This document shows positions 5,072 through 31,996 of a stretch of 64,000 nt of DNA, piece by piece. The stretch spans positions 93,944-157,943 of the forward strand of contig JBLNBN010000039.1 of NCBI GenBank assembly GCA_050260015.1, given 5' to 3'. A program made the position numbers and the translations under genes. Positions within the stretch are counted from its first letter, which is position 1. The number at the start of each line of letters is the position of its first letter. Below the pieces are notes generated by a model, which worked only from the letters and a program-made list of their open reading frames with translations, was not told the origin of the DNA and did no database searches. The DNA comes from Chloroflexota bacterium. Its GTDB lineage: Bacteria > Bacteroidota > Ignavibacteria > Kapaibacteriales > UBA2268.

Positions 5072-5701
5072 ATGATGCGGTTAAGAATTTTCACCGCTCT
5101 GATCGCGCTCGCCGGGCTATCCGGATGCAATCCGTACGAGTTCAGAATTATTCCGAATCCGAATTATGTAGTCGAGGGCAAAGCCCTCAGCGGGTTGGAC
5201 ACGTTTAAGAAAATGCAGGGCTCCCGCGTTCGCCTGCGGCCGGGCGGGATAGTCGCCCTGCGGGTAAAGTCGCTTACGCGGTACGAAGCGAAATTCCGAA
5301 TGAAAGTCGTGCATAGCGGCGTCGTCAATATAAACTTCCGCAGCGTTCCAACCGAATTTCCGGCGACAAAGCCGGTAACGTTTAGGTTCGCGCCCAACGG
5401 CTCGTCGCTTACCGGCGAGACGCGGCAGCTTGCCGGCGCGGATATTTCCACGATTCGCATGAACGAAGGCGCCACGCATGATATACTGATGATGAACGAC
5501 GGCAAGCTCTTATCCGTAAAGGTCGATTGCGAGCAGGTCTGGGCGACTACGGAACAGCCTATAACGGAGTGGATAATAGTCGAAGCCATGGACGGCGCGG
5601 ACATCGAACTGTTCGGCATAGAATTTGCTTATTTGGAGCTGGATTCCTATGTCCTTTCCCCGGAAGTATGGGGTTCGGACGGAGAAAAAATAGAATACTA
5701 A
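5072..5701 (+). CDS. Hypothetical lipoprotein (209 aa)
   Basis: Signal peptide with lipobox 'LAGLSGCNP'. Immediately upstream of fliC. Confidence 0.5.
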   Translation: MMRLRIFTALIALAGLSGCNPYEFRIIPNPNYVVEGKALSGLDTFKKMQGSRVRLRPGGIVALRVKSLTRYEAKFRMKVVHSGVVNINFRSVPTEFPATKPVTFRFAPNGSSLTGETRQLAGADISTIRMNEGATHDILMMNDGKLLSVKVDCEQVWATTEQPITEWIIVEAMDGADIELFGIEFAYLELDSYVLSPEVWGSDGEKIEY

Positions 5702-5742
5702 AGTTTTTTAAAATTGCGTCGAAAACTCCTGTAGTTAGGAAA

Positions 5743-5768
5743 CTAGAAATGGCAGGACGCCCGAAATA
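5743..5768 (+). promoter_or_regulatory. Possible sigma-28 (FliA)-type promoter upstream of flagellin
   Basis: 'CTAGAAAT-N10-CCGAAATA' loosely resembles TAAAGTTT-N11-GCCGATAA. GGAGG Shine-Dalgarno at 5782-5786. Confidence 0.25.
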
Positions 5769-5794
5769 ATCTTAATCTACATGGAGGTTTTTCA

Positions 5795-6748
5795 ATGGCT
5801 ACAGCTATTTCCGGCGGTGGTAGAATCCGCAACAACACGGCAGCGGACAACGCGTATAACTCGTTGATGATCGCTAACCAAACAATCGCTGAAAAGCAAT
5901 TACGGCTTTCGACTGGAAAGCGCATTAACTCGGCGGCAGACGACGTCGCTGGCTACATCACCAGCCGCGCTCTCGGCGCACGTACGTCTTCGTTAAAGAA
6001 CGCGCTCAACGCGGTCGGCGAGGCAAGAAACGTAACGTCGATGGCTTTAGACTCTCTTGATAATGTCGGCAATCTGCTCAACAAGATCAAGGACGCTACG
6101 GCAATGGCATCCACGGGCGCTCTCGGCTCCGACGAAAAAGTGGCTCTCGCTAAGACGGCTTATCGCCTCACTCAGCAGATCCAATCTATCGTCGACACGA
6201 CCGTTTTCGGCGGACGTCAGCTCCTCGGCGGAACTTATTCCGGCGATTGGACAATTGGTTACAAATCCGACGATTCGGCGGAGCAAATCTCTCTTAACTT
6301 AAGAGAAGACGCTAAAACCGAATACAACATTACCGACAGCGGCGTTAAATTTAACCTTAACGCAACTTCGGACGTAAAATCCCAAAATACGTTCGCAGGC
6401 GTTTCAGGCCTTTCGATGAACAGCTTGAACAGCATTACGACCAGCAATTTGGGCATTTTCGCCGAAACCGCAATCGGCGCGACGCTGACCAGCTTAGCGG
6501 ACGCTATCAACAATATCGCGAAGGTATCGGCTTACATCGGCGGTATCGACAACAGACTTTCTTCGCAGGAAGAGCTTCTCACGTCGCAGATCACCAACTA
6601 CAAAGCCGCTACGTCGAGAATTGAAGACGCCGACGCAGCCAATGAGCAAATGGAATTGATGAAATTCCAATTCTTGCAGCAAGCTTCGTTGATCTCTTCG
6701 ACGCAAGCAAACCAAGCTCCGCAAGCGATGATGCAACTCTTCCGCTAA
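5795..6748 (+). CDS. fliC: Flagellin
   Basis: N-terminal 'LSTGKRINSAADDVAGY' and C-terminal 'LISSTQANQAPQAMMQLFR' flagellin D0/D1 signatures. 317 aa. Confidence 0.9.
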   Translation: MATAISGGGRIRNNTAADNAYNSLMIANQTIAEKQLRLSTGKRINSAADDVAGYITSRALGARTSSLKNALNAVGEARNVTSMALDSLDNVGNLLNKIKDATAMASTGALGSDEKVALAKTAYRLTQQIQSIVDTTVFGGRQLLGGTYSGDWTIGYKSDDSAEQISLNLREDAKTEYNITDSGVKFNLNATSDVKSQNTFAGVSGLSMNSLNSITTSNLGIFAETAIGATLTSLADAINNIAKVSAYIGGIDNRLSSQEELLTSQITNYKAATSRIEDADAANEQMELMKFQFLQQASLISSTQANQAPQAMMQLFR

Positions 6749-6865
6749 GAGCGGCAACGCTGAAAGCGGTTTGGTTAAAGCGAAATTGATCCGGAAAATA
6801 TAAGGGGCGGGGCGAAGGAACGCGCCGCCTCTTATTAAATTCAAAATTCAAAAATTGAGGAAGCA

Positions 6866-7228
6866 ATGGCTTATTCAGCTCAACAAATTGCAGCCAATAG
6901 GGTTTACGGGGCAAAGACGCTCGACGGAAAACCAAAGATCCCGGCTTACATGGAGCAGGAAGTTCTCTCCTGGAGCAAGGAAAAGATAATTCTTAAGATG
7001 TACGATTTGTTTATCGTTAGCTGCAAGAAGCGCGATACGAACAAAATGAGCAGGGTGCTTATCGAGCTAATGGGCGCGCTCAATTTCGAATACGAAGAAA
7101 CGGCGACGAGACTTTACAGGCTTTATGAATACAGTCAAAGACTTGTATTTCAAAAAAAATACGACGAGGCATATAAGATTATAGCCGAGCTCCGCGCCGC
7201 ATGGGCGCAGGCTTTTAATTTAGAATAA
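6866..7228 (+). CDS. fliS: Flagellar export chaperone FliS
   Basis: 120 aa helical protein. C-terminal 'RLYRLYEYSQRLVFQ...AELRAAWAQAF' matches the FliS 'LYdYm..rL....l.eAW' pattern. Sits in the flagellar filament locus. Confidence 0.65.
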   Translation: MAYSAQQIAANRVYGAKTLDGKPKIPAYMEQEVLSWSKEKIILKMYDLFIVSCKKRDTNKMSRVLIELMGALNFEYEETATRLYRLYEYSQRLVFQKKYDEAYKIIAELRAAWAQAFNLE

Positions 7229-7255
7229 TTTCCTTTTTAGTTAACGGAGGACCGT

Positions 7256-8695
7256 ATGGCGGACTTGCTTAGTCAAAATCTTTCGACGACCGGCACGAGC
7301 TCGACGAATCAGCTCGAGGCGCTCGTTGAAAGCTTCCGCAATACAGAGCAGCCAAAGCTCGACTCGCTTGCGGTAAGGAAGAAGGCTCTTGAGTCCAAAA
7401 GGCTCTTTTTTACTAATTTAGCGAATAAGATAGATAACCTCTATTCCTCGTTCGATAAGTTCGGCTCCTTTAACTCCTCGGTTTATACGAAAAACGACAC
7501 GATCGACTCTAAGTTTTCCGCGCGAAGCGTTACCTCCTCCAAAAGCGAAGTAATGACGGCGACCGCCGACGGGACCGCGACGCTAACCTCCACAAGCGTA
7601 AGCGTTACGCGCGTGGCTACGAGCGACGTGTTAATATCCGATCGAAAAACTCTCTCGACAAGCTTCGGCCTTTCGGGAACCTACGCGTTCGACTTAACGA
7701 TAGGAACGAAAACGACGAATATTTCCGTCTCTCTCGACGCCGCGGAAACAAACGAAACCGCGATGAAAAAAATATCCGACGCGATTAACGCGGCGACGGA
7801 CGTCGGTATGAAATCAATCGTTATCAAGGACACCACCTCGACCGCAAAGATGTCCTGGACGGCTACGAACAGCGGCGGAACGAACAATATTAAATTCACC
7901 GATTCGCCTATCTTAAACGCTTTAGGCATTACGACAGGCGCGCTAAAACCAGGCCTGACAAATAGAAAAGCTGCGACCGCTACGGGCGCGGGTTTCGGCG
8001 AAGCCGACTATAACGATCTCGACGCGTTGATCAACATCAACGGGATCGATATTACGCGTTCATCGAATACCATCAACGACGTTATTACCGGCGTAACTTT
8101 ATCGCTGCTTAAGCCCCAGGAAACTGGCGACGCCCCTGTCACGCTTACGACAGGCGTGGATATAAAGGCAATTAAGGATATGTTCACCCCGATAACGCAG
8201 GCATACAACGAATTACAGAAGTATTTAAATGAGAATAAAAAACTTCAACGCGACGACTCCTCGATATCCAGCTTAGTCTCCAGGCTTCGCTCGACTATAT
8301 CGGGAGGCTCGGCCAACGCCGGGACGCTGCGCACCTTGATGGATATAGGATTCAAGGTCGGCGACGACGGCACGTTGATGTTTAGCGACGACACAAAGCT
8401 TAAAAAAGCGCTGGAAGAAAGGCCCACGGAAGTAGCAAGCCTTTTTACGGCGTCTGACGGATTTGTTTCAAGAATAAATTCAGCGATGTACAATCTCCGG
8501 GGGGATAAAGGGCTTATCGATTCGCGTCAGAATTCGATAACGTCCCAATTGGATACGAATAAGACACAGACTTCAAGAATGCAGGAGAGGATAGATTCCC
8601 AGGCGAATAATTTACGTAAACAATACAGCTCTTACCTAAAGACGTACTACCAGGCCCAAGGGCAGTACCAATGGGTAATGAGCACGACAGTTTAA
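7256..8695 (+). CDS. fliD: Flagellar filament capping protein FliD (hook-associated protein 2)
   Basis: 479 aa, Ser/Thr-rich. C-terminal 'RIDSQANNLRKQYSSYLKTYYQAQGQY' resembles the FliD C-terminal coiled coil. Position between fliS and flaG. Confidence 0.65.
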   Translation: MADLLSQNLSTTGTSSTNQLEALVESFRNTEQPKLDSLAVRKKALESKRLFFTNLANKIDNLYSSFDKFGSFNSSVYTKNDTIDSKFSARSVTSSKSEVMTATADGTATLTSTSVSVTRVATSDVLISDRKTLSTSFGLSGTYAFDLTIGTKTTNISVSLDAAETNETAMKKISDAINAATDVGMKSIVIKDTTSTAKMSWTATNSGGTNNIKFTDSPILNALGITTGALKPGLTNRKAATATGAGFGEADYNDLDALININGIDITRSSNTINDVITGVTLSLLKPQETGDAPVTLTTGVDIKAIKDMFTPITQAYNELQKYLNENKKLQRDDSSISSLVSRLRSTISGGSANAGTLRTLMDIGFKVGDDGTLMFSDDTKLKKALEERPTEVASLFTASDGFVSRINSAMYNLRGDKGLIDSRQNSITSQLDTNKTQTSRMQERIDSQANNLRKQYSSYLKTYYQAQGQYQWVMSTTV

Positions 8696-8716
8696 TACCA
8701 TAAACCGGACATTGTT

Positions 8717-9118
8717 ATGATAAGCGCTTTAACGGGACTGCCGCCAATTACTATAAATCGGCAGGACGGCGTTAGCGACGACTCGTCAAAGAACGCCGGG
8801 CCGCAATTCTCCGGCTCGGACAGTCGCGCTGCGGCTAAACCCGACAAGCCAAAAGGCGAAACGTCCGCCGATAAAGACGAGCGCAAAGGCGCGAACTACG
8901 AGCATTTGGCGAAAAAAATCTCGCAGGCGTTGAATAAAAATAACGATTTGGCAATTGAATTCCGGCTGGACGAGGAGTCCAATAAGATGATAATGCGGAT
9001 AATCAATTCCCAAACCCGCGAGGTCGTCGAGCAGTATCCCCCGGAAGTGTCGTTGAAAGTGGCTAGATTGGTTTCGAACCTACTTGGAAACGGCTCAGTA
9101 ACGGACGCGGTAGTATAG
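8717..9118 (+). CDS. flaG: FlaG family flagellar protein
   Basis: C-terminal 'IEFRLDEESNKMIMRIINSQTREVVEQYPPEVSLKVARLV' matches the FlaG motif (..vD.eTgevIRQIPpEe.l.la). Confidence 0.7.
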   Translation: MISALTGLPPITINRQDGVSDDSSKNAGPQFSGSDSRAAAKPDKPKGETSADKDERKGANYEHLAKKISQALNKNNDLAIEFRLDEESNKMIMRIINSQTREVVEQYPPEVSLKVARLVSNLLGNGSVTDAVV

Positions 9119-9122
9119 CCAA

Positions 9123-9470
9123 ATGAGCGTATTGCTGGAAAATGCCGAGCGCCTATTAGAGATATCAAAAAATATCTCTCTTTTGCTTTCGAGCGATCTC
9201 GAAGGCGAAGGGGAGAGCGCGCTTATTGAGCGGCTCTACGGGAGCCGCTCTTCTATTATTTCCTACCTCCGGTCCGAATTCGAAACTGAGGCCGGGCGCC
9301 GCGAGCTTGACGAGGAAAATTCCCCCCTGAAAAATAAATTGAAAGAGATCGCTAAGCTTGAGGAAAAAAATCTCGATTTGCTGAATAGGCGCGTTAAGCT
9401 CAAAGGCGCCGAACTAGCGGAGCTAACGCGAAAAAAATCTCTTTTCATTTATACCAAAGACAATAAATAA
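9123..9470 (+). CDS. Hypothetical coiled-coil protein, possibly FliT-like flagellar chaperone
   Basis: 115 aa, helical and charged. Starts 5 nt after flaG in the same operon. No diagnostic motif. Confidence 0.35.
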   Translation: MSVLLENAERLLEISKNISLLLSSDLEGEGESALIERLYGSRSSIISYLRSEFETEAGRRELDEENSPLKNKLKEIAKLEEKNLDLLNRRVKLKGAELAELTRKKSLFIYTKDNK

Positions 9471-9625
9471 CCTAAATGCAGCATTAAATTTGCATTAAAA
9501 ATTAAAAATTGGTTTATTTGAATTATCTTTCATAATTTCCAATAGTTAAAATGCGGACAAGTTAAATATTATCTTATAATTTGCCCCGCTCCATGTTGGC
9601 GCGGCGGGCGATAAGGAGAGGTTGA

Positions 9626-10075
9626 ATGCGATCGCTGAACAAAGTCATGATGATTGGCAACGCCGGCAAGAAACCGGAATTAAAGATTACGGCCGGGGGT
9701 ATTGCCGTTGCGACTTTCAGGCTCGTTACTACCGAAATATGGCGCGACAAGGACGGAACTTACCAGGAGCAGGCCGATTGGCATACCGTCGTAGCTTGGC
9801 GCGGGCTCGCCGAGATCTCTCATAAAATTATTAACAAAGGCTCCCGGCTATATGTCGAGGGCAAGCTTCAGAACCGCATCTGCGACGATAGCCGCTTCCC
9901 GGGCGGCAAGCGACTTACCCCGGAAATTGTCGCCGACAATATTATCCTGCTCGACGGTAGAAGGGAAACAAAAGAGGAAGACGGCGCGCACGAGGAAACC
10001 GCCTGCCTTCAAGCCGAGCTAACCGACGGCGCCGGCGACTTCAGCTCGCTCGTGGAAGACGATCCGTTGTTTTAG
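9626..10075 (+). CDS. ssb: Single-stranded DNA-binding protein
   Basis: OB-fold N-terminal 'MMIGNAGKKPELK...FRLVTTE'. Acidic C-terminal tail ending 'EDDPLF'. AAGGAGAGG Shine-Dalgarno. Confidence 0.85.
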   Translation: MRSLNKVMMIGNAGKKPELKITAGGIAVATFRLVTTEIWRDKDGTYQEQADWHTVVAWRGLAEISHKIINKGSRLYVEGKLQNRICDDSRFPGGKRLTPEIVADNIILLDGRRETKEEDGAHEETACLQAELTDGAGDFSSLVEDDPLF

Positions 10076-11992: not shown

Positions 11993-13411
11993 ATGTCGAA
12001 AATATCTTTTTTTGTCATTCTCCTTGCCGCGGCTCTAGCCGCCGGATGCGGCGCGTCCCGTCCGCGAGGCTATGCGCTAACCGAGGAAAGCGACGAATTC
12101 GATTCGAGCGCGACCGGGATATACATCACGTCAACGTTGCCGATCGATTCGGCCGACGCCTCGAAGCTCGTATTTGATTTCTTTCGTTTAGAGACTAAGG
12201 AATATCCTGAAAACATCAGGATTTTCGCCCGCGTTTACGATTCCTCCGGCCATTTTATCACTAATATGGCCGATCCATACCGGGCCCCGGGGGCTCCAAA
12301 TTATTTCTCAAGCATTCGCGAAGATCTCGGGAAGGTCTACAATACGCGCAGCGAGCAGGTTAACCCGTTTAAGGTGCGCGAATACGGCGCGAAGGATTCC
12401 ATCCCATACAACATCGTTCTCACGATCGACTACAGCGGCTCCATGGCCGGCGTTATGGACGCTATTTACGAGGGCACGGAGCTCTTCGTAAATATGAAAA
12501 TGGATTTCGACCAAATCGGCATAACGACGTTCAATCAAAACGTGGACAGGAAAGTACCGATGAACAGCGACAAGCGAAGCATCATAAATCTATATCGCGC
12601 CAAACGCGACAAGGGATTCGGCCAGTTTTCCGCAGTCTTCGACGCTGTCGCCGACGCCGTATCGCAGTTTGGTCCCACGATTGATTCCGTCCCGAGAGTC
12701 CTTGTGTTGTTTTCCGACGGCGACGAGAATTACTCTAAAACGAAAATCGGCGAGTTGATCGACCAGGCTAAGAAAGAGGACGTGCACATATTCGCCGTGG
12801 GCTTCGGCTATTCGCAGGACGAGAATTTAAAATACATGGCGCAGTACACAGGCGGCAAGTTCTACAAAGCGCGCTCGAAGCAGGAGTTAATCGCCGTGTT
12901 CCGCGATATATACATGAGCCTGCGTTACTATTACCTAATTACTTACGATCCGCCGAATTACTGGGGTTATCACAAGGTAAACGCATACCTGAAGCATCCC
13001 GCCCGCGCGGACAGCCTGCTCGCTACCGGCGAATACGAAACGAGCGGCTTAATGCCCTGGGACAGCATCGGGCGCGCATTTACTCGACCAATCCTCTTCG
13101 ACTACAATGAAGCCACTTTAAAGCCCGAATCGCTGCCTATAATCGACGAGATAGTCGACGCGCTTCTATCCGCCCCGCGCTTAAAATTGGAGATACAGGG
13201 GCATACGGACGACATCGGCGGGATTGAATTTAATATGCGGCTTTCGGAAGCGCGCGCGCAGGCGGTAATGAACGCGCTTATAGATCGCGGCATAGACCCG
13301 AAGAGATTGCGCTCGCGCGGGTTCGGCTTCTCCAAGCCGATCGCGCCCAATACGGACGAGGCCGGGCGCGGAAAGAACCGCCGTACGGAATTCGTCGTTA
13401 TAGCGAAGTAA
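11993..13411 (+). CDS. vWA-domain / OmpA-domain fusion lipoprotein
   Basis: Lipobox 'LAAGCG'. vWA MIDAS 'VLTIDYSGSMAG'. C-terminal OmpA_C 'IQGHTDDIGGIEFNMRLSEARAQAV...NRRTEFVVI'. Confidence 0.8.
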   Translation: MSKISFFVILLAAALAAGCGASRPRGYALTEESDEFDSSATGIYITSTLPIDSADASKLVFDFFRLETKEYPENIRIFARVYDSSGHFITNMADPYRAPGAPNYFSSIREDLGKVYNTRSEQVNPFKVREYGAKDSIPYNIVLTIDYSGSMAGVMDAIYEGTELFVNMKMDFDQIGITTFNQNVDRKVPMNSDKRSIINLYRAKRDKGFGQFSAVFDAVADAVSQFGPTIDSVPRVLVLFSDGDENYSKTKIGELIDQAKKEDVHIFAVGFGYSQDENLKYMAQYTGGKFYKARSKQELIAVFRDIYMSLRYYYLITYDPPNYWGYHKVNAYLKHPARADSLLATGEYETSGLMPWDSIGRAFTRPILFDYNEATLKPESLPIIDEIVDALLSAPRLKLEIQGHTDDIGGIEFNMRLSEARAQAVMNALIDRGIDPKRLRSRGFGFSKPIAPNTDEAGRGKNRRTEFVVIAK

Positions 13412-21314: not shown

Positions 21315-23123
21315 ATGAACAACGTCGCAACTGATATTCTGGTTAAGGACGGCATATTGGAAATTTTGCCGTTCAATGCAGCAATAATCGATAGCCATTA
21401 CCGAATTATACGTGCGAACAAAGGTTTCGAAAATGATTTCGGAGCCTGGGATGGAAAACGATGTTACGAAGCTTGCCGCCGCGAAAAAGCTCCATGCTCC
21501 CACTGCCGCGTTCAAAACGTGCTGCGCGAAGGCAAGAATTACTCGACAAAGGATTCGTTGCTAAATAAAAACTGCGGATTAACCCAGTACTCTATAAGGT
21601 TCTCCCCCCTTACTACTCCCGAGGGCGATTACGTTATGATCATTTACTTTAACGAAAACGAAGAGGCTTTATGGCAACGCGAATACAATTTGCTGTTCGA
21701 GAAAGTTCCTTCAATGATTTCAGTGATCGATCGGGAGTTCAATATCGTACGCATAAACGATAGGTTCCGTTCGTGCTTCGGGGATATGCGCGGTAAAAAG
21801 TGCTTCGAAGCGTACAAGAGGAAAGGTACCGAATGCCTTGGATGCCCCGCCGTGGAAACGTTTAACGACGGCCTGGAGCATACCGGCGCGCTCGCGCTGA
21901 ACAACTTGCGGGGCGAAAAGTCGCAGTTCGTCGTTACGACCGTCCCGCTTGCATACGACGATGAAGGCGTCTCGCTCATAATGGAAATCGGCACGGACAT
22001 TACGGAAATAATGAAGTTACAGGAGCAATTGCGCAATTCCCATGATTTTTGCACTACGCTGCTGAACAACTCCAGCGACGCTATAATCGCGCTCGATAAA
22101 AAGGGCAAGGTCCTTATTTTCAACGACTCGATCCAGGAATTGCTCGACTGGAAACAACCCCGCCGACCGGGCATAAACCAGATCGCAGAAATAATGCCTA
22201 AAGAATTTTTCGACGATCCCGACGAAGACGGGGCAATCGCGCGAGATTTAAAAGCCCTGTTAACGGCTCCTTCCGGCGAAAATATACCCGTCACGCTTTC
22301 CGCTTACGAACTGCGCTACAAAAAGCAGACTATGGGCAGGGTGGCTTTCATTACGGACGAACGCCCAAAGATTGATTTTGAAAAGAGAAAGATTGAGAAC
22401 GAACGCCAATCGCGCGCCCGGATATTCGGCTCGCTGAACGAGAAAATTAGCGGCATGCTTCACGTCATCGACGAGGACGTTAGCTCGCTCGGCAAAGCCA
22501 TCGACGGCGAAGAGCGGGATTGCGAAAAGATAATGACGAGCTACAGGCAATTAAAGAACAATTTTGAAAATACGCTCGACATAGTTGGGATATACATGAA
22601 GTACGCCGAGGACCCGCGTCCAAGATTCCAGCTTATCGACGCGGAAACGCTTATTTACGGCATGATTAATCGGCTTGAGGAATGGCTGCGCAGCAAGAAT
22701 ATTCATATTATTTCAGAGATCCGGCTGCCTATCGAGCCGAGCTATTTTAACATTGAGGCGTTCGAGGATTTCTTTAAGATACTCGTGACAAACGCATGCA
22801 CCATAGCCCCATGGAATTCTAAAAATCCAGTAAGCCTGAAGTTGAGAGTAGTTCAAAAAGGCGACGAGATCCTGATGGACATCTACGAATTGCCCTACGA
22901 GATGGAGGCGAGCAAGGAAATTGAATTAGACAGCTTCCGAAGAGATATCCAGTTCGGTTTAGCGACCGCCGAGCTAATCGCAGGCGACCACGGAGCAATA
23001 CTCGAACGCTCCTCCGACAAAGACTGGAGCAAGCTCTTCCGACTTCGTATATCGCGTAAGAAATCCGAAGAGTTCGCCCGTTACTTTAACGAAATGCGCG
23101 TTAGGGAAGCCGCTCAAGGGTGA
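21315..23123 (+). CDS. Cytoplasmic sensor protein with two tandem Cys-rich PAS-like domains, a third PAS domain and a degenerate GHKL ATPase-like C-terminus (possible atypical histidine kinase)
   Basis: Internal repeat: 'GKRCYEACRREKAPCSHCRVQNVL' (C-x3-C-x7-C-x2-C) and 'GKKCFEAYKRKGTECLGCPAVETF'. PAS 'LLNNSSDAIIALDKKGKVLIF'. G2-box-like 'GLATAELIAGDHGAIL' but no G1 box. Confidence 0.55.
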   Translation: MNNVATDILVKDGILEILPFNAAIIDSHYRIIRANKGFENDFGAWDGKRCYEACRREKAPCSHCRVQNVLREGKNYSTKDSLLNKNCGLTQYSIRFSPLTTPEGDYVMIIYFNENEEALWQREYNLLFEKVPSMISVIDREFNIVRINDRFRSCFGDMRGKKCFEAYKRKGTECLGCPAVETFNDGLEHTGALALNNLRGEKSQFVVTTVPLAYDDEGVSLIMEIGTDITEIMKLQEQLRNSHDFCTTLLNNSSDAIIALDKKGKVLIFNDSIQELLDWKQPRRPGINQIAEIMPKEFFDDPDEDGAIARDLKALLTAPSGENIPVTLSAYELRYKKQTMGRVAFITDERPKIDFEKRKIENERQSRARIFGSLNEKISGMLHVIDEDVSSLGKAIDGEERDCEKIMTSYRQLKNNFENTLDIVGIYMKYAEDPRPRFQLIDAETLIYGMINRLEEWLRSKNIHIISEIRLPIEPSYFNIEAFEDFFKILVTNACTIAPWNSKNPVSLKLRVVQKGDEILMDIYELPYEMEASKEIELDSFRRDIQFGLATAELIAGDHGAILERSSDKDWSKLFRLRISRKKSEEFARYFNEMRVREAAQG

Positions 23124-23478
23124 CGTAAGCCGCGGCGTTAATTTCAGTGTGGGAAAGCGTAACGTGGCACTTCAAGGCGCCGTACTTCTCCCTGGTCTCG
23201 CCTTCGAGAATTGCGTAAGGCTTGCCGCCGGCCTCGTTTGCGATAGAAAAATCCTTGAACTTAAATCCTTTAGTAATGCCCGTGCCGATGGCTTTGCTGA
23301 AGGCTTCCTTCGCGGCGAACCGCGCCGCGTAATGCAAAGCGCTTTTCTCGCCGTAGCTGTCGCAGTAGCTTCTTTCGGCGTCCGTGAATATTCTCGCAAG
23401 AAATCGTTCGCCGTAGCTAATTACGGATTGGCGAATGCGGTCAACTTCGACTATATCAATGCCGATCCCGTATATCAT
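23101..23478 (-). CDS. acpS: Holo-[acyl-carrier-protein] synthase
   Basis: 'MIYGIGIDIVEVDRI', 125 aa. Confidence 0.9.
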   Translation of the reverse strand: MIYGIGIDIVEVDRIRQSVISYGERFLARIFTDAERSYCDSYGEKSALHYAARFAAKEAFSKAIGTGITKGFKFKDFSIANEAGGKPYAILEGETREKYGALKCHVTLSHTEINAAAYVTLERLP

Positions 23479-23531
23479 ACTGATTAGTTCCTTAATAATT
23501 TGTTTCTCTTAAGCGCATAAGCGCGGAACGG

Positions 23532-24290
23532 CTATTGGGCGACGCGATTATTTCTATAATCGACTACGTCCGCTAGCAGCTTTGGTAAAACTTCTCCCGA
23601 CGTCCCCATTAGATGCGCGTCGGCATAGGGAGTTAGTGAAGTCCGGTTTACGTTTATCTCGACGACGAACGCGCCGCGTCTTTTTGCTAGAAGGGGCAAG
23701 CCTGCGGCCGGGTAGACGTCCGCCGACGTGCCTATCGAGAAGAAGACCTCCGCATTTTCCGCGGCGGCTTCCGCTTTAATGAGCGCCTCTTCGGGCAGGT
23801 TCTCGCCGAACCAAACGACGGCCGGGCGGACGAGTCCGCCGCAGCTTTCGCAACGCGGCAAGGAGCCGTCTTCGAAGCGCGTTTCGCCGACGTAGGGCCT
23901 GTGGCATTTAAAGCAGCGATTGTCCACTATATTGCCGTGCAATTCCACGACGTCGTGGGAGCCCGCCCGCGCATGCAGGCGATCGATGTTTTGAGTGATA
24001 AGCGTAAAGCTCTTAAAAAGCTCTTCCATCCGGGCAAGAGCGTAATGCCCTGGGTTCGGGCGGCTTTCGTCGATAACGGAGCGTCGGCTCTCGTACCAGG
24101 CCCAGACGCGATCCGGATTGGACATAAAGCCTTCGATAGAGGCCAGTTCGCGCGGGTTAAACTGCTGCCAGAGCCCCCCGGGGTCGCGAAAAGTTGCTAT
24201 CCCGCTCTCGGCGGATACCCCCGCCCCCGTGAGAGCGGCCACGCGCTCCGCCGAGGCGAGCTTTGAAACTAAAGTTTGATATGAATCCAT
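23532..24290 (-). CDS. cobB: NAD-dependent protein deacylase (Sir2/CobB)
   Basis: 'GAGVSAESGIATFRDPGGLW'. Zn-ribbon 'CFKCH...CESCGG'. 'VVWFGE'. Confidence 0.9.
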   Translation of the reverse strand: MDSYQTLVSKLASAERVAALTGAGVSAESGIATFRDPGGLWQQFNPRELASIEGFMSNPDRVWAWYESRRSVIDESRPNPGHYALARMEELFKSFTLITQNIDRLHARAGSHDVVELHGNIVDNRCFKCHRPYVGETRFEDGSLPRCESCGGLVRPAVVWFGENLPEEALIKAEAAAENAEVFFSIGTSADVYPAAGLPLLAKRRGAFVVEINVNRTSLTPYADAHLMGTSGEVLPKLLADVVDYRNNRVAQ

Positions 24291-24898: not shown

Positions 24899-27172
24899 AT
24901 GTCAAAAGGCGGTGGAGCAGGCAAGGTGTACTTTGTGCTTTACCTTGCGGTTGTTCTTGAATTGCTTATCATCATCGTCGAGCGCGACGAAGCCGAAGAA
25001 GGCTTGCATAAGAAGCAAAAGGAAACGATGAAAATCGTTGAATCCATTCTCTCCCAGCTTCAGTCGGGCGCAGGAACGGAAGGCATTAACACCCGTCCGC
25101 AAGACGAAATCACCATACCCCCGTCGGGCGTTAACCTGAAGGACGTTATGGGCGCGGATATTAAATCCTTCCGTAAATACCTCGTAGAAGTCGGCGTTAC
25201 CGACGTCAGCGCGGCTATTAAACGTAAAGAGGGCGAAACGGAGAAAGAGCATACGCTTCGTATCCAGAAACTTGTCGAACTCGCTAACGTCGACCAGCTG
25301 CAATATCAAGTTTTCTTTAATTCGAGCCAGGACCCGGCTTCCGCGCCAATATTCCCTACGGAAGAGGCGCTTAAAGACCAGGGGATTGACTTTATGACGC
25401 TCGGCGTTGGAGCTTCCGTTTCCGATCCCCGCGAACCCGGTTCCACGTGGGAATTTATGGGCGTCCAGGAATTACTGCTCGATAAAGAAGCTACTTTTAA
25501 TAATTTAGACTTGAGAAACCTTACGGCTTCTTCTCTCGCACCGATTTACAAATCGAAGATCATTCATGGCCCTTCGTTTGTCCCAAGCGGTCAGGGCGAG
25601 GATAAAGCCTTCTATTATAATGACACCCTTTCGCGCAAGAGCCTTGCCGCGGGTACCAGCATGAAAAAACGCGTATTCGAAGTTAACTTCCAGCCGCCGA
25701 ACAGACCGGGTTGGTACAAGCTTCGCTTCGCTTCGCGCACGAACAGGATCCTCGGTATCAGCGCGGCCGTTAAGCCCGCCGAGCTGAGCGACGAAGCCAC
25801 GGTTAACATCGGCACCGTCCAATTAACCGTTCGCGACCTCCGCCGCGTTCAAAAAGAGCTTTCGAACACCCTGGAGAAATATCAATTACCCGCTGGCGAA
25901 GTTCTTATCGTCGAGCAGAACATTGATAAATTCGAAACTGGCCTCGAACGCTCCCGCAACCTGGCAATGAAGGACGACAACGCTTCGGAAGTAATCGGTA
26001 AGATCAATTTATATGGATATATCATTAAGCTCCTCGCTCCCGGTCAATCGATCAACTTCGAACAGAACAAGGGCGCAATGGAATTCAATATCCGCGTCAT
26101 CACGCCGAAGCCCCAGCTCGCCGAGCCTGCTATCGTTATGCAGACCTACGTAGCAAGCTTCGACAAGGTGGCTGCCGCCTTCGAATTCTCCGTCAGCCCC
26201 TACCAGGAAGGCCAGAACGCAATCGAAGGTCGCGTAATCGATAACAACAAGGCTACGGTAGCCCGCATTACGTTCCAACCCCGCGACCAGATCGCAGGCT
26301 CCGGCGTAACGGCCCCCGTTCGCGGCGGCACGCGTCTCTACCAGGGAACCGTCTCGCAGAATCTCTCGCCGGGCAAGTACCAGATAGAGATCGTTCATAA
26401 GCTGAGCGGAAAGTCCCGCACGGAAGTCGGCGACCTCGAGATCTTCCCGACGCGCCTGACCCCGGAAAGCGAGAAAGGAATAAAAGACCGCTTTAGGGCC
26501 TATACGTTCTATGGATATCCCGTACAGATAAACGCTGTGCCCAGCTCCGGCGGTAAGATCAAGCCTGACCAGTTCAGACTTTACATAACGACGGACAACA
26601 ACTCGCAACGTCCTCCTATACAGGGCCTGGTAACGGAGAAAGACAACGTGCTTACTCTTACTCCGGAGTCGAAGAAGGTCAGCTTGCGCGTAACCTGGAT
26701 ACAGCCGTTCACCGGCCAGGAAGTCGACCTGCTCCCGACTATTACGGAAGACATCAAGCAGGAAGAGCCGAAGATCTCGGTTAGAAACCTCTCTCCGGAC
26801 ATAACCGGTACGGCGGCCACCGTTAAGATCACCGTTCGCGGCATACAGATATCGCCTCCCGGAACGGGCAGCAACAAGGATGCTAACATACAGGTTAGAA
26901 TCGCGGGCGAACCTAAGGTCGACATAACGGGCTACACCTCGAAGATCGAACCTACGATCGACGAAGAAGGCGAAGGCAAGTACACGATCTACCTTGAATT
27001 GGGCGGCAAGCTCGAGCGCGGCAAGGACAAGATAAGCGGCACGGTAATAATACCGATCTCGGCCGTAGCTATCAACCCGATCAACGGCGTTCGAAGCGAT
27101 CCTCAACCGCAGCAGATACAGGTACCGATTAACTTCTCGCCGGACCGCGGCGGACCTCAAAGAAGAAGGTAA
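24899..27172 (+). CDS. Bitopic inner-membrane protein with large periplasmic beta-rich region (757 aa)
   Basis: Single TM 'VYFVLYLAVVLELLIIIV' with an embedded Glu. GGAGG Shine-Dalgarno 8 nt upstream. Arg-rich C-terminus 'PQRRR'. No known domain recognised. Confidence 0.6.
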   Translation: MSKGGGAGKVYFVLYLAVVLELLIIIVERDEAEEGLHKKQKETMKIVESILSQLQSGAGTEGINTRPQDEITIPPSGVNLKDVMGADIKSFRKYLVEVGVTDVSAAIKRKEGETEKEHTLRIQKLVELANVDQLQYQVFFNSSQDPASAPIFPTEEALKDQGIDFMTLGVGASVSDPREPGSTWEFMGVQELLLDKEATFNNLDLRNLTASSLAPIYKSKIIHGPSFVPSGQGEDKAFYYNDTLSRKSLAAGTSMKKRVFEVNFQPPNRPGWYKLRFASRTNRILGISAAVKPAELSDEATVNIGTVQLTVRDLRRVQKELSNTLEKYQLPAGEVLIVEQNIDKFETGLERSRNLAMKDDNASEVIGKINLYGYIIKLLAPGQSINFEQNKGAMEFNIRVITPKPQLAEPAIVMQTYVASFDKVAAAFEFSVSPYQEGQNAIEGRVIDNNKATVARITFQPRDQIAGSGVTAPVRGGTRLYQGTVSQNLSPGKYQIEIVHKLSGKSRTEVGDLEIFPTRLTPESEKGIKDRFRAYTFYGYPVQINAVPSSGGKIKPDQFRLYITTDNNSQRPPIQGLVTEKDNVLTLTPESKKVSLRVTWIQPFTGQEVDLLPTITEDIKQEEPKISVRNLSPDITGTAATVKITVRGIQISPPGTGSNKDANIQVRIAGEPKVDITGYTSKIEPTIDEEGEGKYTIYLELGGKLERGKDKISGTVIIPISAVAINPINGVRSDPQPQQIQVPINFSPDRGGPQRRR

Positions 27173-27183
27173 CGCTTAGAAGC

Positions 27184-27231
27184 GCGCAAAGCGCCCCGAA
27201 TTTGAACGGGGCGCTCTGCGCAGCTTTTTTC
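27184..27231 (+). terminator. Rho-independent terminator after the 757-aa membrane protein gene
   Basis: 14-bp stem GCGCAAAGCGCCCC / GGGGCGCTCTGCGC with one mismatch, followed by AGCTTTTTT. Confidence 0.6.
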
Positions 27232-27309
27232 ATTAGATAACAACTAAAAAATAAACGCTCCGTGTCTTATAAATTTTATAGAACCGTGAAAATTAAGGGC
27301 ATAAATAAA

Positions 27310-29055
27310 ATGACAAAAAAATTCTTAGTTCCCGCGCTACTTGCAGCGATCCTGCTTGCTGCGGCGCCCGGCACGCAACTTCGCTCCCAAGGAGACGAGG
27401 CGTTCCGTATCAAGCTGGAGAGCATTTTTTATAAATTCAAGAATTACCGCTTTTCCACTATCTCCATTTACAGATTGCGCGACATCAAAGACATCCGTAA
27501 CGCAATCAAGGCCAGGGAAGACGCCCAGGCGGGCGGCGGCGAAGTCAAAGAAGGCAACGCCGATTGCGTCAATAAAGCCGACCGGGCTATTACCTCGCTT
27601 GTTGAGAGCGAAGTAAACCAGGGAGCCTCATTCCTCGGAGTTCAACGCGCGTTGCTGACTCGCGGTTTGGACGCCCCTGCGGATTTGCAGTGCATCTACG
27701 ACTACTATATGAGCCGCACGCAAGTCGCCGTTAAGCAGATTAAAAACGTTTACGCAGTTACTACCCGTATGTCCGACCGCGACCAGATGGTGCCGTCGAC
27801 CATTATCGGCGTTATCGTCTCCTACGATGATAACGAAGACATTAAGCGTAACGTCGACCCTGCGAACCCTACAAACATCTTTACGTACCCTGAGCTCGTT
27901 TCCTTCGAACTCGATCCGGGAACGTACCGCGCCAATAATCTTTATGAATTGGTGCAAAACTCTTTCCGCCAGAACAACGTTGAAAATAAAACGCTTGAAG
28001 CCCAGGGAATTGGAACCTTCATGCGTTTCGCTCCTCCGAAGTACGGCACGTCGCTCTCGCTCATTTCCAGCGAAGCTGAAATTACTTCCTACGACGTCCA
28101 GAACTTCATACGCATCAGCGAAGGCCAACCGCAACAAATGACCAAGAACAACGAGGTCATCGTTAGCCCCGACCTTATTAGCTGGCGTCAATACCAGGGT
28201 GAGTACTATACTAACGAAGACGGCACGGTAGACACCATCTCCTCCGTTACCAATCATAACTTGCCGAAGATCGGCGTAGAGCTTCGCTACGGCATCGAAG
28301 AGATTAACTATCCTTCGCTTTGGAGCGAACGCCTCACGTTGTCGGCTCTATGGAAGAACGTAAAATTAGGCTTAATACTTCCCACAGCCGGATGGAGCTC
28401 TATGACGAGCGACCTCTTCGAGGTTGAGCGCAAGCTAACCCACGGCGGAACCGGCGTTGCCGGCCAGGCGGACTTCCCTATGCCCGTCATTCCAAATTCC
28501 GGGATATTCCACTTTAGCTTAGGCTACGTATTCGGCAACGCTAAGCCCGCTTCCTACAAGAATCGCGACTTAACCCCCGATAACTTCCCGACTGGCGGCA
28601 TCGATCCTACTAATCTGTTTTACAACGATTACCTCGTTAGATTTAACGGCCAATTCCACTATACGTTCGGAATCGCAATTGACGACGATTACTTACTGCG
28701 CTTCGGCATCGGCGCTACAGCATACACGATGGAACGTTGGACGGACGCGCTCGAGTTGAATCCTGAAACCGGCGACAAGGTAGTATTCCGTAAAGCTGGC
28801 GAAGAAACCGTCGGCGGTCTCTCCGGGAAAATTGAATTCATGAGCACGAACGTTTCGACTCCTTACGGAGCCTCGGCGCAATACTTTGACGAAGGAATTT
28901 ACGGCAACGTTTGGTTGCAAATTCCGGTAATAGAAAATACGTTTGCGCTTCGTCTTGACGCAAAGGGCTACTTTAAGCCTTTCGCAGACGAACCGCGCCC
29001 ATGGGAAAACGACAGCGTCTTCCTTCCCTCGGCGCGTCTTATAGTCAATTTCTAG
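27310..29055 (+). CDS. Predicted outer-membrane beta-barrel-like protein (paralog 1)
   Basis: Signal peptide 'MTKKFLVPALLAAILLAAAP'. Alternating hydrophobic C-terminus ending 'SARLIVNF' with terminal Phe. Confidence 0.5.
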   Translation: MTKKFLVPALLAAILLAAAPGTQLRSQGDEAFRIKLESIFYKFKNYRFSTISIYRLRDIKDIRNAIKAREDAQAGGGEVKEGNADCVNKADRAITSLVESEVNQGASFLGVQRALLTRGLDAPADLQCIYDYYMSRTQVAVKQIKNVYAVTTRMSDRDQMVPSTIIGVIVSYDDNEDIKRNVDPANPTNIFTYPELVSFELDPGTYRANNLYELVQNSFRQNNVENKTLEAQGIGTFMRFAPPKYGTSLSLISSEAEITSYDVQNFIRISEGQPQQMTKNNEVIVSPDLISWRQYQGEYYTNEDGTVDTISSVTNHNLPKIGVELRYGIEEINYPSLWSERLTLSALWKNVKLGLILPTAGWSSMTSDLFEVERKLTHGGTGVAGQADFPMPVIPNSGIFHFSLGYVFGNAKPASYKNRDLTPDNFPTGGIDPTNLFYNDYLVRFNGQFHYTFGIAIDDDYLLRFGIGATAYTMERWTDALELNPETGDKVVFRKAGEETVGGLSGKIEFMSTNVSTPYGASAQYFDEGIYGNVWLQIPVIENTFALRLDAKGYFKPFADEPRPWENDSVFLPSARLIVNF

Positions 29056-29117
29056 GATAAATCATCGTTCAACTAATTAACTGTATTGTCTATTACTTGG
29101 AAAGAAAAATAATAATT

Positions 29118-30539
29118 ATGAAAAAATACCTCGTAGCCTTATTAGTGATATTGAGCTTTGCCGTTGTGAAGGCTCAAGACATCGTGGACAGACAGGGCAT
29201 AATCGACTCGTTGACGACAATCGACCCTGAAATACAACGTTACTTCCCCCGTTGGAAGGTATGCGAACCCGATTTACAGATACAGATCTGGCAGTCTTTC
29301 GTATACCGCGGCGACGATAAGAGCAAATTAAGCCGGGACAACATTGAAATATTAGCCGCTCCGCGCGAATATGATACCGATCCGTTCGAGATCTTAATGA
29401 TCACTTGCGGACAGAGCTCTATGAATTCCGTCGAGATCGAGGCCACCATGGGCGACATCTTGCTCGGCTTCCTCTCCGGCGACATGGTTTACCAGGGCGA
29501 AATGCGCGGCGAACGCAATAGAGTAGCTAAAAGAGACTATTGCTATACGGACATTCCGATAGACATTCCGCTTACCTCCTCGCAAGCCGAAGTAATAATT
29601 AACTACCTCGAGCCGACGAACGTGACTCACGCTTTCTCGATTTCTCTCTTCGAGCAATCCCTGAAAGTTGGCGAAACTGGCTTCTGGCTGCGCAATCAAA
29701 TCGGTACCGATCGTATCGGCTACCATTTTTGGCAGAGCGGCGAATCCAAGATCGTTCTTCAAAGACCTCTTTACGTAAACGACGACTCGAGAACCCGCGG
29801 CGGCATCCCGTACCTTATCAACGCCTACCTAGGCGGCGCTTACAGGGTTAAGAGCGGTCTCGCTAATTCTACGCCCGTGCTCAGCTGGATCGGCCAGCGC
29901 AAGCTCAATAGCGTATCCGACGGTAAATTTGTCGGCGGCTTTGACTTCCACATGCCGTTCAACCCCGAAACCGGCGTTAGCTTAAATCTTGAATTACCCT
30001 TTAAGAGAGTGCAACCGCAAAATATAGCTCTATCGGAATATTTTGTTTACGCTCCGTTAGAAGATGGCGCAGTAAACCTCTACGACGGCTCTCCCGTCAA
30101 TTTCATAGCTCCCGTTCTTCGTTCCTCCGGCCAATTCACCGGTTTTTACCACTGGTGGTTGGACAGGAAGAACCCCGAAAACTATATCCGCTTCGACGCA
30201 GGTATCAGCTACGCGGAAGTTCGTGAAATGGCAATCGTCGGCGATTCCGTAAGCGGCTCATGGACTATGACCAACGAGGCTACGGGTCTTCGCACCTTCA
30301 AGCCTAAAGAATTCGGCGACTACGTTTACCTTAAGGTAGAATACCGTAATCAAGCCGCTTACCCGTTCGGCATGAGCGCTCAATACTCGAACCAGATCTT
30401 CTTAGGCAGGGTTTACATCCCGCTCTTTAGCAACTGGCTCTACCTCGAGGGCAAGTTCTCGACACCGTTGCGCGGCGTTAGACCCTTCGAGCAAGAGAAT
30501 TTCTTTATGATATCGCCGGTATTAAGGCTGACTATCTAA
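29118..30539 (+). CDS. Predicted outer-membrane/secreted protein (paralog 2)
   Basis: Signal peptide 'MKKYLVALLVILSFAVVKAQ'. C-terminal region is similar to the upstream gene ('GRVYIPLFSNWLYLEGKF...ISPVLRLTI' vs 'GNVWLQIPVIENTFALRLDAKGYF...SARLIVNF'). Confidence 0.5.
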   Translation: MKKYLVALLVILSFAVVKAQDIVDRQGIIDSLTTIDPEIQRYFPRWKVCEPDLQIQIWQSFVYRGDDKSKLSRDNIEILAAPREYDTDPFEILMITCGQSSMNSVEIEATMGDILLGFLSGDMVYQGEMRGERNRVAKRDYCYTDIPIDIPLTSSQAEVIINYLEPTNVTHAFSISLFEQSLKVGETGFWLRNQIGTDRIGYHFWQSGESKIVLQRPLYVNDDSRTRGGIPYLINAYLGGAYRVKSGLANSTPVLSWIGQRKLNSVSDGKFVGGFDFHMPFNPETGVSLNLELPFKRVQPQNIALSEYFVYAPLEDGAVNLYDGSPVNFIAPVLRSSGQFTGFYHWWLDRKNPENYIRFDAGISYAEVREMAIVGDSVSGSWTMTNEATGLRTFKPKEFGDYVYLKVEYRNQAAYPFGMSAQYSNQIFLGRVYIPLFSNWLYLEGKFSTPLRGVRPFEQENFFMISPVLRLTI

Positions 30540-30652: not shown

Positions 30653-31996
30653 ATGCAGCATTGGACTATAAAGCGCTCGCTTTTTTTACTCGCAGTACTA
30701 GCCGCTACTTTTAACCTTGCGCACGCGCAAAACGATCGAAAGCAGGTCAACGAAGACTCATTGCGAAAAGAATTGCTTGAGGACGCTAAGGTAACGGCAG
30801 CTAGAAAAGAAATTGAAATTACTGTGCGCAGCGTGGATATAAGCAAATTCCCCCAGGTTAAGATCATAATTGAGGCTTATAATAAATTAGGCGAACCCCT
30901 GGATAGTCTTACTAGCGAGAACCTCTGGGTTTACGAGAACGGCGTTCAGAAAAAGGTTCTCGAGGTTAGGAAAATACCCGTTGCGGACCAAATCGCCGTC
31001 GACTTCGTCCTTCTAATGGATAGAACGGGCTCGATGCAACAGAACATTAACGCAGTTCGCTCGAACATATCTACGTTCAGCCGCAACCTTATGAAGCGCG
31101 GTATCGATTCACGCCTGGGTCTTATTATTTTCGGGGATGAAATAGACAAAGTCTATCAACCGACTAACAATATTCTTACATTTCTTGATTGGATATCCCC
31201 GTTGCAAGCGCAGGGCGGCGGCGACGAGAAGGAAAACGCGCTCGAAGCGCTGGAAGCTCTCGCAAAGATCAACTGGCGAAGAGAAGCTATTAAGGTGGCC
31301 GTTCTAATCACCGACGCGCCGTACCACCAGGCAGGCGAAGAGGGGTTCGGGCTAACTAATCAAACGACGAATTCAATAATCGAATTGATGCAGCGCAACG
31401 AAATTCGCGTGTTCTGCATCGTCCCGCCGAGGCTGACCGGCTACCAAACTATCGCAACGAAAACGAGGGGCAGCGCGTTCGATATCGATTATCCCTTTTC
31501 CACTATATTGGATAACTTTTCAAACCAGCTGACAAACCTGTTCTCCTTAACGTACAACTCCGGCCAAAGCGCACTACCGGATTCTATCGAGATAGCTCTC
31601 TTTAATAAAGGCCAGCAACGCCTGGTAAAGAAGACTATTCCTATTGTTGAATTGGGCCGAAAGCTGATCATCGAGAACCTGCTCTTTGAGACTAACAAGT
31701 TTACTCTACCAGATAACGTCGGGGAATTAAATCTTTTGGCTGATTTTCTCCGCGCTAAATCGACGGTGGAGATACTTATTGAAGGACATACCGACAACGT
31801 GGGCAGCGCTTCGGTAAACTTAAAGCTTAGCGAACTGCGCGCGCAGGCGGTAAAGGAATACCTGGTAAAGAAGGGGATTGCGGACGCGAGGATCCAAACG
31901 AAGGGCTTTGGGAAAACTAAACCAATAGCTACAAATAAAACTGAGTTTGGGCGTCAGCTCAACCGTCGAACCGAGATTGTGATACTTTCAAAATAA
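30653..31996 (+). CDS. vWA-domain / OmpA-domain fusion protein (paralog of 11993-13411)
   Basis: Signal peptide. MIDAS 'FVLLMDRTGSMQ'. OmpA_C 'IEGHTDNVGSASVNLKLSELRAQAV...NRRTEIVIL'. Confidence 0.8.
   Translation: MQHWTIKRSLFLLAVLAATFNLAHAQNDRKQVNEDSLRKELLEDAKVTAARKEIEITVRSVDISKFPQVKIIIEAYNKLGEPLDSLTSENLWVYENGVQKKVLEVRKIPVADQIAVDFVLLMDRTGSMQQNINAVRSNISTFSRNLMKRGIDSRLGLIIFGDEIDKVYQPTNNILTFLDWISPLQAQGGGDEKENALEALEALAKINWRREAIKVAVLITDAPYHQAGEEGFGLTNQTTNSIIELMQRNEIRVFCIVPPRLTGYQTIATKTRGSAFDIDYPFSTILDNFSNQLTNLFSLTYNSGQSALPDSIEIALFNKGQQRLVKKTIPIVELGRKLIIENLLFETNKFTLPDNVGELNLLADFLRAKSTVEILIEGHTDNVGSASVNLKLSELRAQAVKEYLVKKGIADARIQTKGFGKTKPIATNKTEFGRQLNRRTEIVILSK

Follow-up and report, generated by a model that had tools for sequence, protein, structure and literature searches.

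Conserved Cysteine Triads in a Tandem PAS Protein with a Degenerate Kinase Module, Whose Intact-Kinase Relatives Adjoin Dissimilatory Sulfur Genes

To our knowledge, few PAS domains that ligate an iron-sulfur (Fe-S) cluster through cysteines are known, namely those of NreB and OrpR. OrpR of Desulfovibrio vulgaris Hildenborough is a sigma54 activator that senses redox potential with a [4Fe-4S] PAS domain that has C52, C61 and C65 plus an acidic residue two positions after the first cysteine (C1+2; PMC8359166). NreB senses O2 with a [4Fe-4S] cluster in Staphylococcus carnosus and sulfide with a [2Fe-2S] cluster in Bacillus licheniformis, where Cys63, Cys66, Cys78 and a labile fourth sulfur ligand hold the cluster (PMC13478379), and in a broad classification of PAS domains the NreB type is the sole Fe-S motif mentioned (PMC10468136). 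Here we analyze a gene from an Ignavibacteria-like metagenome contig (GenBank assembly GCA_050260015.1, contig JBLNBN010000039.1, positions 93,944 to 157,943, a stretch of 64 kb referred to below as the window), which encodes a putative sensor protein with a cysteine triad in each of two N-terminal PAS domains and a C-terminal module resembling a degenerate histidine kinase.

The window protein resembles OrpR in having an N-terminal cytoplasmic PAS domain with three conserved cysteines at nearly matching places (positions 52, 61 and 65 in OrpR; 50, 61 and 64 here) and an acidic residue at C1+2 (D/E54 in OrpR; E52 and E165 here), and both proteins come from anaerobes. The two differ in the spacing of the motif, which is C-x8-C-x3-C in OrpR and C-x10-C-x2-C here when compared by published positions, and in architecture, OrpR combining a single PAS domain with a sigma54 AAA+ output whereas the window protein combines a PAS tandem with a DHp/CA module. 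The likeness to NreB lies in the layout of a cytoplasmic PAS-histidine kinase with an Fe-S cluster (a putative one here) in the PAS pocket, and in cysteines situated before helix F-alpha and in the E-alpha region; however, the order of the motif is reversed (CX2C-x11-C(-x2-C) in NreB, C-x10-CX2C here), and NreB is a HisKA_3 kinase whereas the window protein has no kinase motifs. A search of the PDB sequences with a profile of the cysteine-bearing PAS domains (Cys-PAS profile) matched no NreB sequence. Because motif order and spacing differ, membership in the NreB or OrpR family is not supported, and we set the protein beside both by motif and description, as one that may work in an analogous way. 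The subfamily of three-cysteine (Cys3) PAS domains has no dedicated Pfam or NCBIfam model, and literature searches by motif string and by topic found no description of it, the motif strings returning unrelated proteins, RdhA and FhuF among them; a paper on the dsr genes of Ca. Thermonerobacter does not mention the adjacent kinase.

The gene encodes 602 amino acids without a transmembrane segment, and the best Pfam stretches fall at residues 16-107, 134-231 and 248-293, all of them PAS. Models of the PAS superfamily score above their cut-offs (PAS_4, 61.5 bits against 23.1; PAS_9, 56.2 against 27; PAS, 31.6 against 22.6), as does TIGR00229 of NCBIfam (44.5 bits against 22.9). Neither Pfam nor NCBIfam finds anything beyond PAS domains, and HisKA and HATPase_c have no Pfam match in the protein even at E<=10. 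The first two domains, PAS1 and PAS2, align to each other without a gap at 26% identity (E=3e-13), their cysteines in register at an offset of 113 residues, and judged by this alignment they are a true internal duplication. An AlphaFold2 (AF2) model of residues 1-245 (pLDDT 87.3) predicts the PAS-type order of strands and helices twice, and Foldseek matches it to the tandem PAS domains of DosP, NifL, FixL and MmoS with probability 1.00. An earlier reading of the DNA, made without database searches (hereafter the original prediction), had described tandem PAS-like repeats at this place, and both the internal repeat and the modeled folds bear it out. The third domain, PAS3, closes with the motif GRVAF.xD, which is invariant in all three clades of relatives described below (columns G341, V343, A344, F345 and D348).

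The motif cysteines of the protein are 50, 54, 61 and 64 in PAS1 and 163, 174 and 177 in PAS2. In the AF2 model C50 and C54 lie on a short E-alpha helix (50-54) and C61 and C64 in the loop right before F-alpha (66-72), and the cysteines of PAS2 have the same layout. The original prediction was right about the existence of the PAS1 cysteines and wrong about one spacer, given as x7 where the arrangement is C50-x3-C54-x6-C61-x2-C64; its account of PAS2, with Tyr167 in the place of the second cysteine of C163-x10-C174-x2-C177, was accurate. Across a full-length family alignment of 18 sequences (alignment A1), the pattern GK-x-C-[YF]-E-x-Y-K-K-x5-C-x2-C is common to both PAS domains, and in a curated alignment of 35 Cys-PAS domains (alignment A3) the three-cysteine core is invariant in all 35, the only other invariant residue being the PAS Asn.

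A search with the A3 profile against 1.84 billion cluster representatives (50% identity clusters) returned 37,667 matches at E<=1e-3 and 450 at E<=1e-30. The motif C-x10-C-x2-C is present in 144 of the 149 best representatives, usually in two copies per protein, and the spacer is exactly 10 in 290 of the 296 motif instances in these 149. A word-indexed search with the domain profile gave 2 matches only and is uninformative. Among 500 domain matches extracted locally, all three cysteines are found in 382 and none in 48. Given their presence in 35 of 35 curated domains and 382 of 500 profile matches, co-conservation of the triad is far beyond chance. In the 382 Cys3 domains the position after the first cysteine (C1+1), occupied by Y51 in PAS1 and F164 in PAS2 of the window protein, is aromatic (Y 293, F 45, H 39), the position C1+4 is mostly Tyr (209) or Phe (57), with Leu in 31 and Cys in 30, and a Pro directly follows the last cysteine (C4) in 50%. 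Similarly, a Glu on strand I-beta, represented by Glu224 in PAS2, occurs in 84% of the Cys3-PAS domains as opposed to 6 of the 48 PAS domains without these cysteines in the same proteins (12%); in PAS1 the equivalent column holds Tyr, and Cys54 is present there. These statistics point to a cysteine triad, perhaps plus the Glu, as the conserved functional unit, and by its distribution Cys54 is a minority variant, a lineage feature of PAS1 in the clade of the window protein (class B, below) and of some intact kinases. The metal-binding or redox-sensing Cys4 site of the original prediction thus survives as a conserved cluster suited to a cofactor, with three cysteines rather than four as the conserved unit.

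A compensatory swap of the fourth ligand had been suggested by the 18-sequence alignment, in which PAS1 domains lacking a cysteine on H-beta (CHY) carry one at C1+4. We dropped this idea: among the 382 domains both cysteines occur together in 4, the C1+4 cysteine alone in 26, the H-beta cysteine alone in 18 and neither in 334, and the C1+4 cysteine shows no association with absence of an I-beta Glu (Fisher p=0.6). Attachment of a c-type haem was likewise rejected, the motifs being CSHCR and CLGCP and not CXXCH. Elsewhere in the subfamily, three giant sensors (P0076, 1709 amino acids; P0090, 1901; P0097, 1347) match the Cys-PAS profile in as many as 11 stretches, and the exact C-x10-C-x2-C occurs five times in P0076, the highest exact-motif count in one protein, which suggests that these giants are arrays of cofactor-binding PAS domains.

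Among the PDB sequences, the Cys-PAS profile search brought up no subfamily member of solved structure, and its top match was a phototropin LOV domain (E=0.015). The LOV alignments (E about 0.02) are weak; they place the first cysteine (C1) on the photoactive Cys of GxNCRFLQ and the CxxC pair (C3 and C4) at the start of F-alpha in a gapless region, and they put the position of Glu224 two residues before the I-beta Gln, hence on the same face of the strand. The secondary structure of the AF2 model (residues 1-245) agrees with this placement of the cysteines, and the evidence weakly suggests that they are substitutions lining the canonical PAS cofactor pocket in a core of normal length. The description of the cluster as inserted, given in the original prediction, does not fit this gapless, if weak, alignment to the LOV E-alpha/F-alpha segment. 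Among solved structures, flavin sensors of the LOV/PAS type (phototropin LOV, YtvA, YF1) match best in sequence, and YF1 and VicK resemble the window protein in their overall PAS-DHp-CA arrangement; in contrast to LOV domains, the flavin-binding residues are absent here (NCRFLQ is replaced by xC[YF]ExYK), and two extra invariant cysteines replace the F-alpha start. A His on H-beta was also considered as a ligand and rejected: in the weak LOV alignment it stands beside a pocket-facing position and should point away, and it is not conserved in PAS2.

The C-terminal 253 residues (350-602) match the transmitter of an intact relative, P0002, at E=2e-17 (BLASTP). His383, which falls in the predicted DHp helix, aligns exactly with the His of the relatives' GLAHTIKN, and Asn493 with their N-box Asn; the motif around His383 is GMLHVIDE, the surroundings are unconserved, and the other class B members have no phospho-acceptor His. 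The G1 box of the relatives, DNGxGM, is replaced by YELPYEM, and the F/G2 ATP lid, FTTFFTTKGxKGTGLGL, is shortened to SFRRDIQFGLA. A second AF2 model (pLDDT 80.8) shows PAS3, a DHp hairpin and an alpha/beta-sandwich CA-like domain, with pLDDT<50 in the lid (529-544), and Foldseek matches it to VicK (4i5s), YF1 (4gcz), ThkA (3a0r), HK853 and DivL (4q20) at E=1e-15 to 1e-10, and also to WalK and to plant phytochrome kinase-related domains. With neither a G1 box nor an F/G2 lid left, the C-terminus is, by sequence and by model, a histidine-kinase DHp+CA fold that has lost its ATP-binding motifs, that is, a pseudokinase. This agrees with the degenerate ATPase or pseudo-kinase suggested in the original prediction, which had noted a missing G1 box and a G2 box (a G2-like remnant, FGLATAE, is present); its statement that a canonical H-box is lacking applies to the motif, and the His itself, judged by alignment, is still there. 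The outcome it had named as a refutation, an ordinary HisKA/HATPase kinase with incidental cysteines, fails both on the kinase and on the cysteines. DivL of Caulobacter and the histidine-kinase-related domain of plant phytochromes likewise have a DHp+CA fold that has lost catalysis or can do without it, and they transmit their signals by contacts between proteins, but DivL lacks the His and keeps an ATP-binding CA domain, whereas the window protein keeps the His and has lost the G1 box and the lid.

Full-length relatives (about 20, at 30-40% identity) come from metagenomes of Ignavibacteria, Kapaibacteria and Calditrichota, together with more distant PAS kinases. Scanning the GTDB species, each represented by one genome, yielded 38 loci, which fall into three clades according to kinase motif scoring (regular expressions for H-box, G1 and G2), neighboring genes and a neighbor-joining tree built from the sensor region. 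Class A proteins combine an intact kinase (GLAHTIKN, DNGxGM, GTGLGL) with two Cys-PAS domains, and in about 28 of the 38 loci a class A gene lies beside dsr or DsrMKJOP-like genes and two response regulators. The flanking genes are either dsrN, dsrL-like, dsrC, dsrM and dsrK, or an operon of dsrK(CCG), dsrM-like, dsrO and dsrP/J-like genes (a P-J fusion), and the kinase and the two response regulators (173-188 and about 125 amino acids) come directly after these genes. This module occurs in metagenome-assembled genomes (MAGs) of Ignavibacteria, Kapaibacteria and Acidobacteria, and the class A Cys-PAS kinase with its regulators is a candidate for regulating dissimilatory sulfur metabolism.

Class B, comprising the window protein, L008, L015, L027/28/45 and L036, has kept both Cys-PAS domains, always with the extra C1+4 cysteine in PAS1, and has lost G1 and G2; it is a clade paralogous to the dsr-linked kinases of class A. 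In class C, a third paralogous clade (L032-L035, L037, L041-L043; P0018, P0019, P0022) all six cysteines of both PAS domains are lost together, the CA domain is degenerate and the kinase motifs are gone. L008, the nearest relative that the window protein has (49% identity over residues 1-365), comes right after ATP sulfurylase (sat) and dsrC, and L036 follows dsrMK in a MAG that also carries the class A gene L020; the remaining class B genes have housekeeping neighbors. Conservation of the transmitter and the sensor region is 62% versus 53% in class A, 26% versus 50% in class B, and 13-19% versus 39-46% for the window protein. From this reversal between the two classes, the sensor of class B has evidently stayed under selection, from which its catalytic module has been freed.

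Our favored explanation, to which we give an even chance, is that the window protein is a cysteine-triad PAS pseudokinase, an Fe-S- or metal-based sensor of redox state or sulfur that acts without autophosphorylation. By analogy with the three-cysteine PAS clusters of OrpR and Bacillus licheniformis NreB, the cofactor is most likely an Fe-S cluster. The analysis shows the domain architecture, the conserved cysteine triad, the degeneration of the kinase, the clades and the dsr linkage of class A; the identity of the cofactor, the signal and the mechanism of output we infer as follows. The protein would be soluble and presumably dimeric, of histidine-kinase lineage, with the invariant triad (the E-alpha cysteine plus the CxxC at the N-terminus of F-alpha) holding a cofactor in each N-terminal PAS pocket, completed by Cys54 in PAS1 and in PAS2 probably by Glu224 or an exogenous ligand. 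Oxidation or loss of the cluster, or exchange of a ligand, in response to redox potential, O2 or nitric oxide, or sulfide or sulfane sulfur, would change the conformation of the PAS domain, and the change would reach the DHp hairpin by way of the inter-PAS helices and PAS3. Class A proteins would respond with gated autophosphorylation and transfer to the two adjacent response regulators. For the window protein, whose CA domain cannot plausibly bind ATP, signaling as a pseudokinase is probable; most likely this cofactor-gated protein would either modulate a partner kinase or regulator, through heterodimerization or docking, or accept or remove phosphate in trans at His383. A broader proposal, which we regard as possible but doubtful, is that PAS domains with C-x10-C-x2-C form a widespread and so far uncharacterized class of Fe-S or sulfane-sulfur sensors (at least 450 clusters) that, acting via a kinase and two response regulators, control dsr or DsrMKJOP-like operons in Ignavibacteria, Kapaibacteria and Acidobacteria, a circuit that the window pseudokinase would tune or rewire.

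The coordinates of these features are collected in Table 1. Around the sensor gene lie genes for a SPOR/TPR protein, AcpS and Sir2 (all on the minus strand), ComM/YifB, a CBS protein and GDPD, and the convergent acpS overlaps the sensor gene by 23 nt at the 3' ends (23101-23123). The same gene in the same synteny is found in three other metagenome samples with 3 nt differences, which leave a dN/dS comparison with these near-identical copies powerless. In a related Ignavibacteria MAG (L044), homologues of AcpS and Sir2 (Sir2 60% identical), corresponding to window positions 23101-24290, adjoin a dsrKMOPJ-like operon, at a distance of about 1 kb, and a class A kinase with regulators, and given this neighborhood the window locus may derive from an L044-like arrangement. 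In L044 itself the class A kinase and a dsrK-like gene (5594-9808) are broken by frameshifts or stops, either through assembly error or through pseudogenization.

Table 1. Positions of the sensor gene, its domains and its key residues in the window, with example loci of the intact module in other genomes.
Feature	Position	Strand	Basis
Whole gene, PAS-PAS-PAS-DHp-CA(degenerate)	21315..23123	+	Open reading frame list; Pfam; full-length homologues; clade assignment
PAS1, residues 14-115	21354..21659	+	Pfam PAS_4; AF2 PAS-type strands/helices; hmmsearch domain 14-115
Cys cluster 1, C50-Y-E-A-C54-x6-C61-S-H-C64	21462..21506	+	Invariant columns C50, C61, C64 (alignment A3)
PAS2, residues 127-231	21693..22007	+	Pfam PAS_9; AF2; internal repeat of PAS1
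Cys cluster 2, C163-F-E-A-Y167-x6-C174-L-G-C177(-P178)	21801..21845	+	Canonical subfamily form
Glu224, I-beta of PAS2, candidate fourth ligand/pocket residue	21984..21986	+	Domain statistics; weak LOV alignment
PAS3, about residues 245-350, no cysteine motif	22047..22364	+	Pfam PAS; AF2 model 2
DHp-like hairpin, helices 350-397 and 403-432	22362..22610	+	AF2 model 2; BLASTP to P0002; alignment A1
His383, aligned to phospho-acceptor His	22461-22463	+	BLASTP to P0002; alignment A1
Degenerate CA (GHKL) domain	22626..23054	+	Alignments, AF2, Foldseek
N-box Asn493	22791-22793	+	Invariant in alignment A1
dsr-kinase-regulator module, examples	L001 555-10767; L002 2721-10741; L006 992-10775		

The rest of the window encodes housekeeping, flagellar, type IX secretion system (T9SS)-type and OmpA/VWA proteins typical of an Ignavibacteria-like genome. 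Genes for flagellin and FliD and for a protein with a T9SS Por_Secre_tail share the window (5795-8695 and 44519-45898). Additionally, three consecutive large open reading frames of 757, 597 and 480 amino acids at 24899-30539 (+) have no Pfam match; VWA-OmpA proteins are encoded after them at 30653-31996 and also at 11993-13411, and together these may form an uncharacterized envelope or surface complex.

Several considerations weigh against a cofactor-gated pseudokinase linked to sulfur metabolism. The spacing and order of the cysteines are unlike those of NreB (CX2CX11C) and OrpR (C-x8-C-x3-C), and a CxxC that starts a helix, together with one or two more cysteines, also suits a zinc or rubredoxin-like site or a thiol-disulfide switch. 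Convergence of the cysteines on one site we infer from the weak LOV mapping and from the way the three cysteines mostly occur all together or not at all. Within class B the C-terminal domain varies so much (13-14% identity to the window protein) that a specific output function common to the clade is doubtful. Moreover, the 64-kb window contains no response regulator, dsr gene or partner kinase (for response regulators, no open reading frame of the window matches RR1 or RR2 at E<=1e-5), and with this housekeeping neighborhood the link of the window gene to sulfur metabolism is by homology only. The same lack of a response regulator or dsr gene suits the proposal that the window gene is a relic that descends from a dsr-linked kinase, has been left without partners and catalytic motifs, and no longer signals, as do the loss of G1 and G2, the very low C-terminal conservation and the L044 arrangement, which suggests that the locus is a remnant. 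We nevertheless consider a relic highly improbable: the reading frame of 602 codons is intact and retains every one of the seven motif cysteines as well as the residues of the PAS core, gene and synteny recur in the three other samples, class B is a multi-genome clade with sensor regions 40-50% identical and a fixed Cys4 PAS1, and AF2 still predicts a confident DHp+CA fold.

The remaining alternatives concern the chemistry of the triads. They may bind one metal ion, either structural Zn2+ or a rubredoxin-like Fe, with Cys4 in PAS1 and Cys3 plus Glu in PAS2, and either stabilize the E-alpha/F-alpha segment or sense metal or oxidant when the thiolates are oxidized and the metal is released. A zinc knuckle consists of a CxxC right before a helix plus further cysteines, and PAS1 of the window protein has four cysteines within 15 residues; WalK is reportedly a cytoplasmic PAS protein under zinc regulation, although its zinc ligands are said to be His/Asp/Glu at a different site. 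We judge a single metal unlikely, considering that only three cysteines are conserved, the fourth position being mostly Tyr or Phe, which is unusual in structural zinc sites, that a PAS pocket is big enough for a cluster and, circumstantially, that the relatives occur in anaerobes beside Fe-S-rich respiratory operons. An arrangement without metal is conceivable as well, in which the F-alpha CxxC is a thioredoxin-like redox pair and C1 a third reactive thiol, together sensing thiol-disulfide balance or sulfane sulfur (persulfide, polysulfide or a DsrC-trisulfide-like species) through di- or trisulfide bridges. The active site of thioredoxin and DsbA is a CxxC(P) at a helix N-terminus, and the Pro after C4 in half of the domains would fit such a site. 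The class A relatives, moreover, lie within dsr clusters, adjacent to dsrC and dsrMK, and the chemistry of these genes' products is the reduction of a cysteine trisulfide (PMC6338057). The buried position in the PAS pocket indicated by the weak LOV alignment would be hard for protein disulfide partners to reach, however, and the conserved Glu and the aromatic residue beside C1 fit a cofactor environment better. A switch made of three thiols within the PAS core is, as far as we know, without precedent, and we regard this alternative as improbable.

If the cofactor-gated sensor proposed here is correct, the abundant three-cysteine PAS subfamily would widen the known modes of redox and sulfur sensing in anaerobes. 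For its part, the window gene adds an example of a sensor module conserved after kinase catalysis has been lost. The intact-kinase members lie directly beside dsr genes in recently recognized non-classical sulfate or sulfite reducers, and would provide a concrete candidate regulator for dissimilatory sulfur metabolism in these lineages; the subfamily and its linkage to dsr genes are a more interesting lead than the window gene itself.

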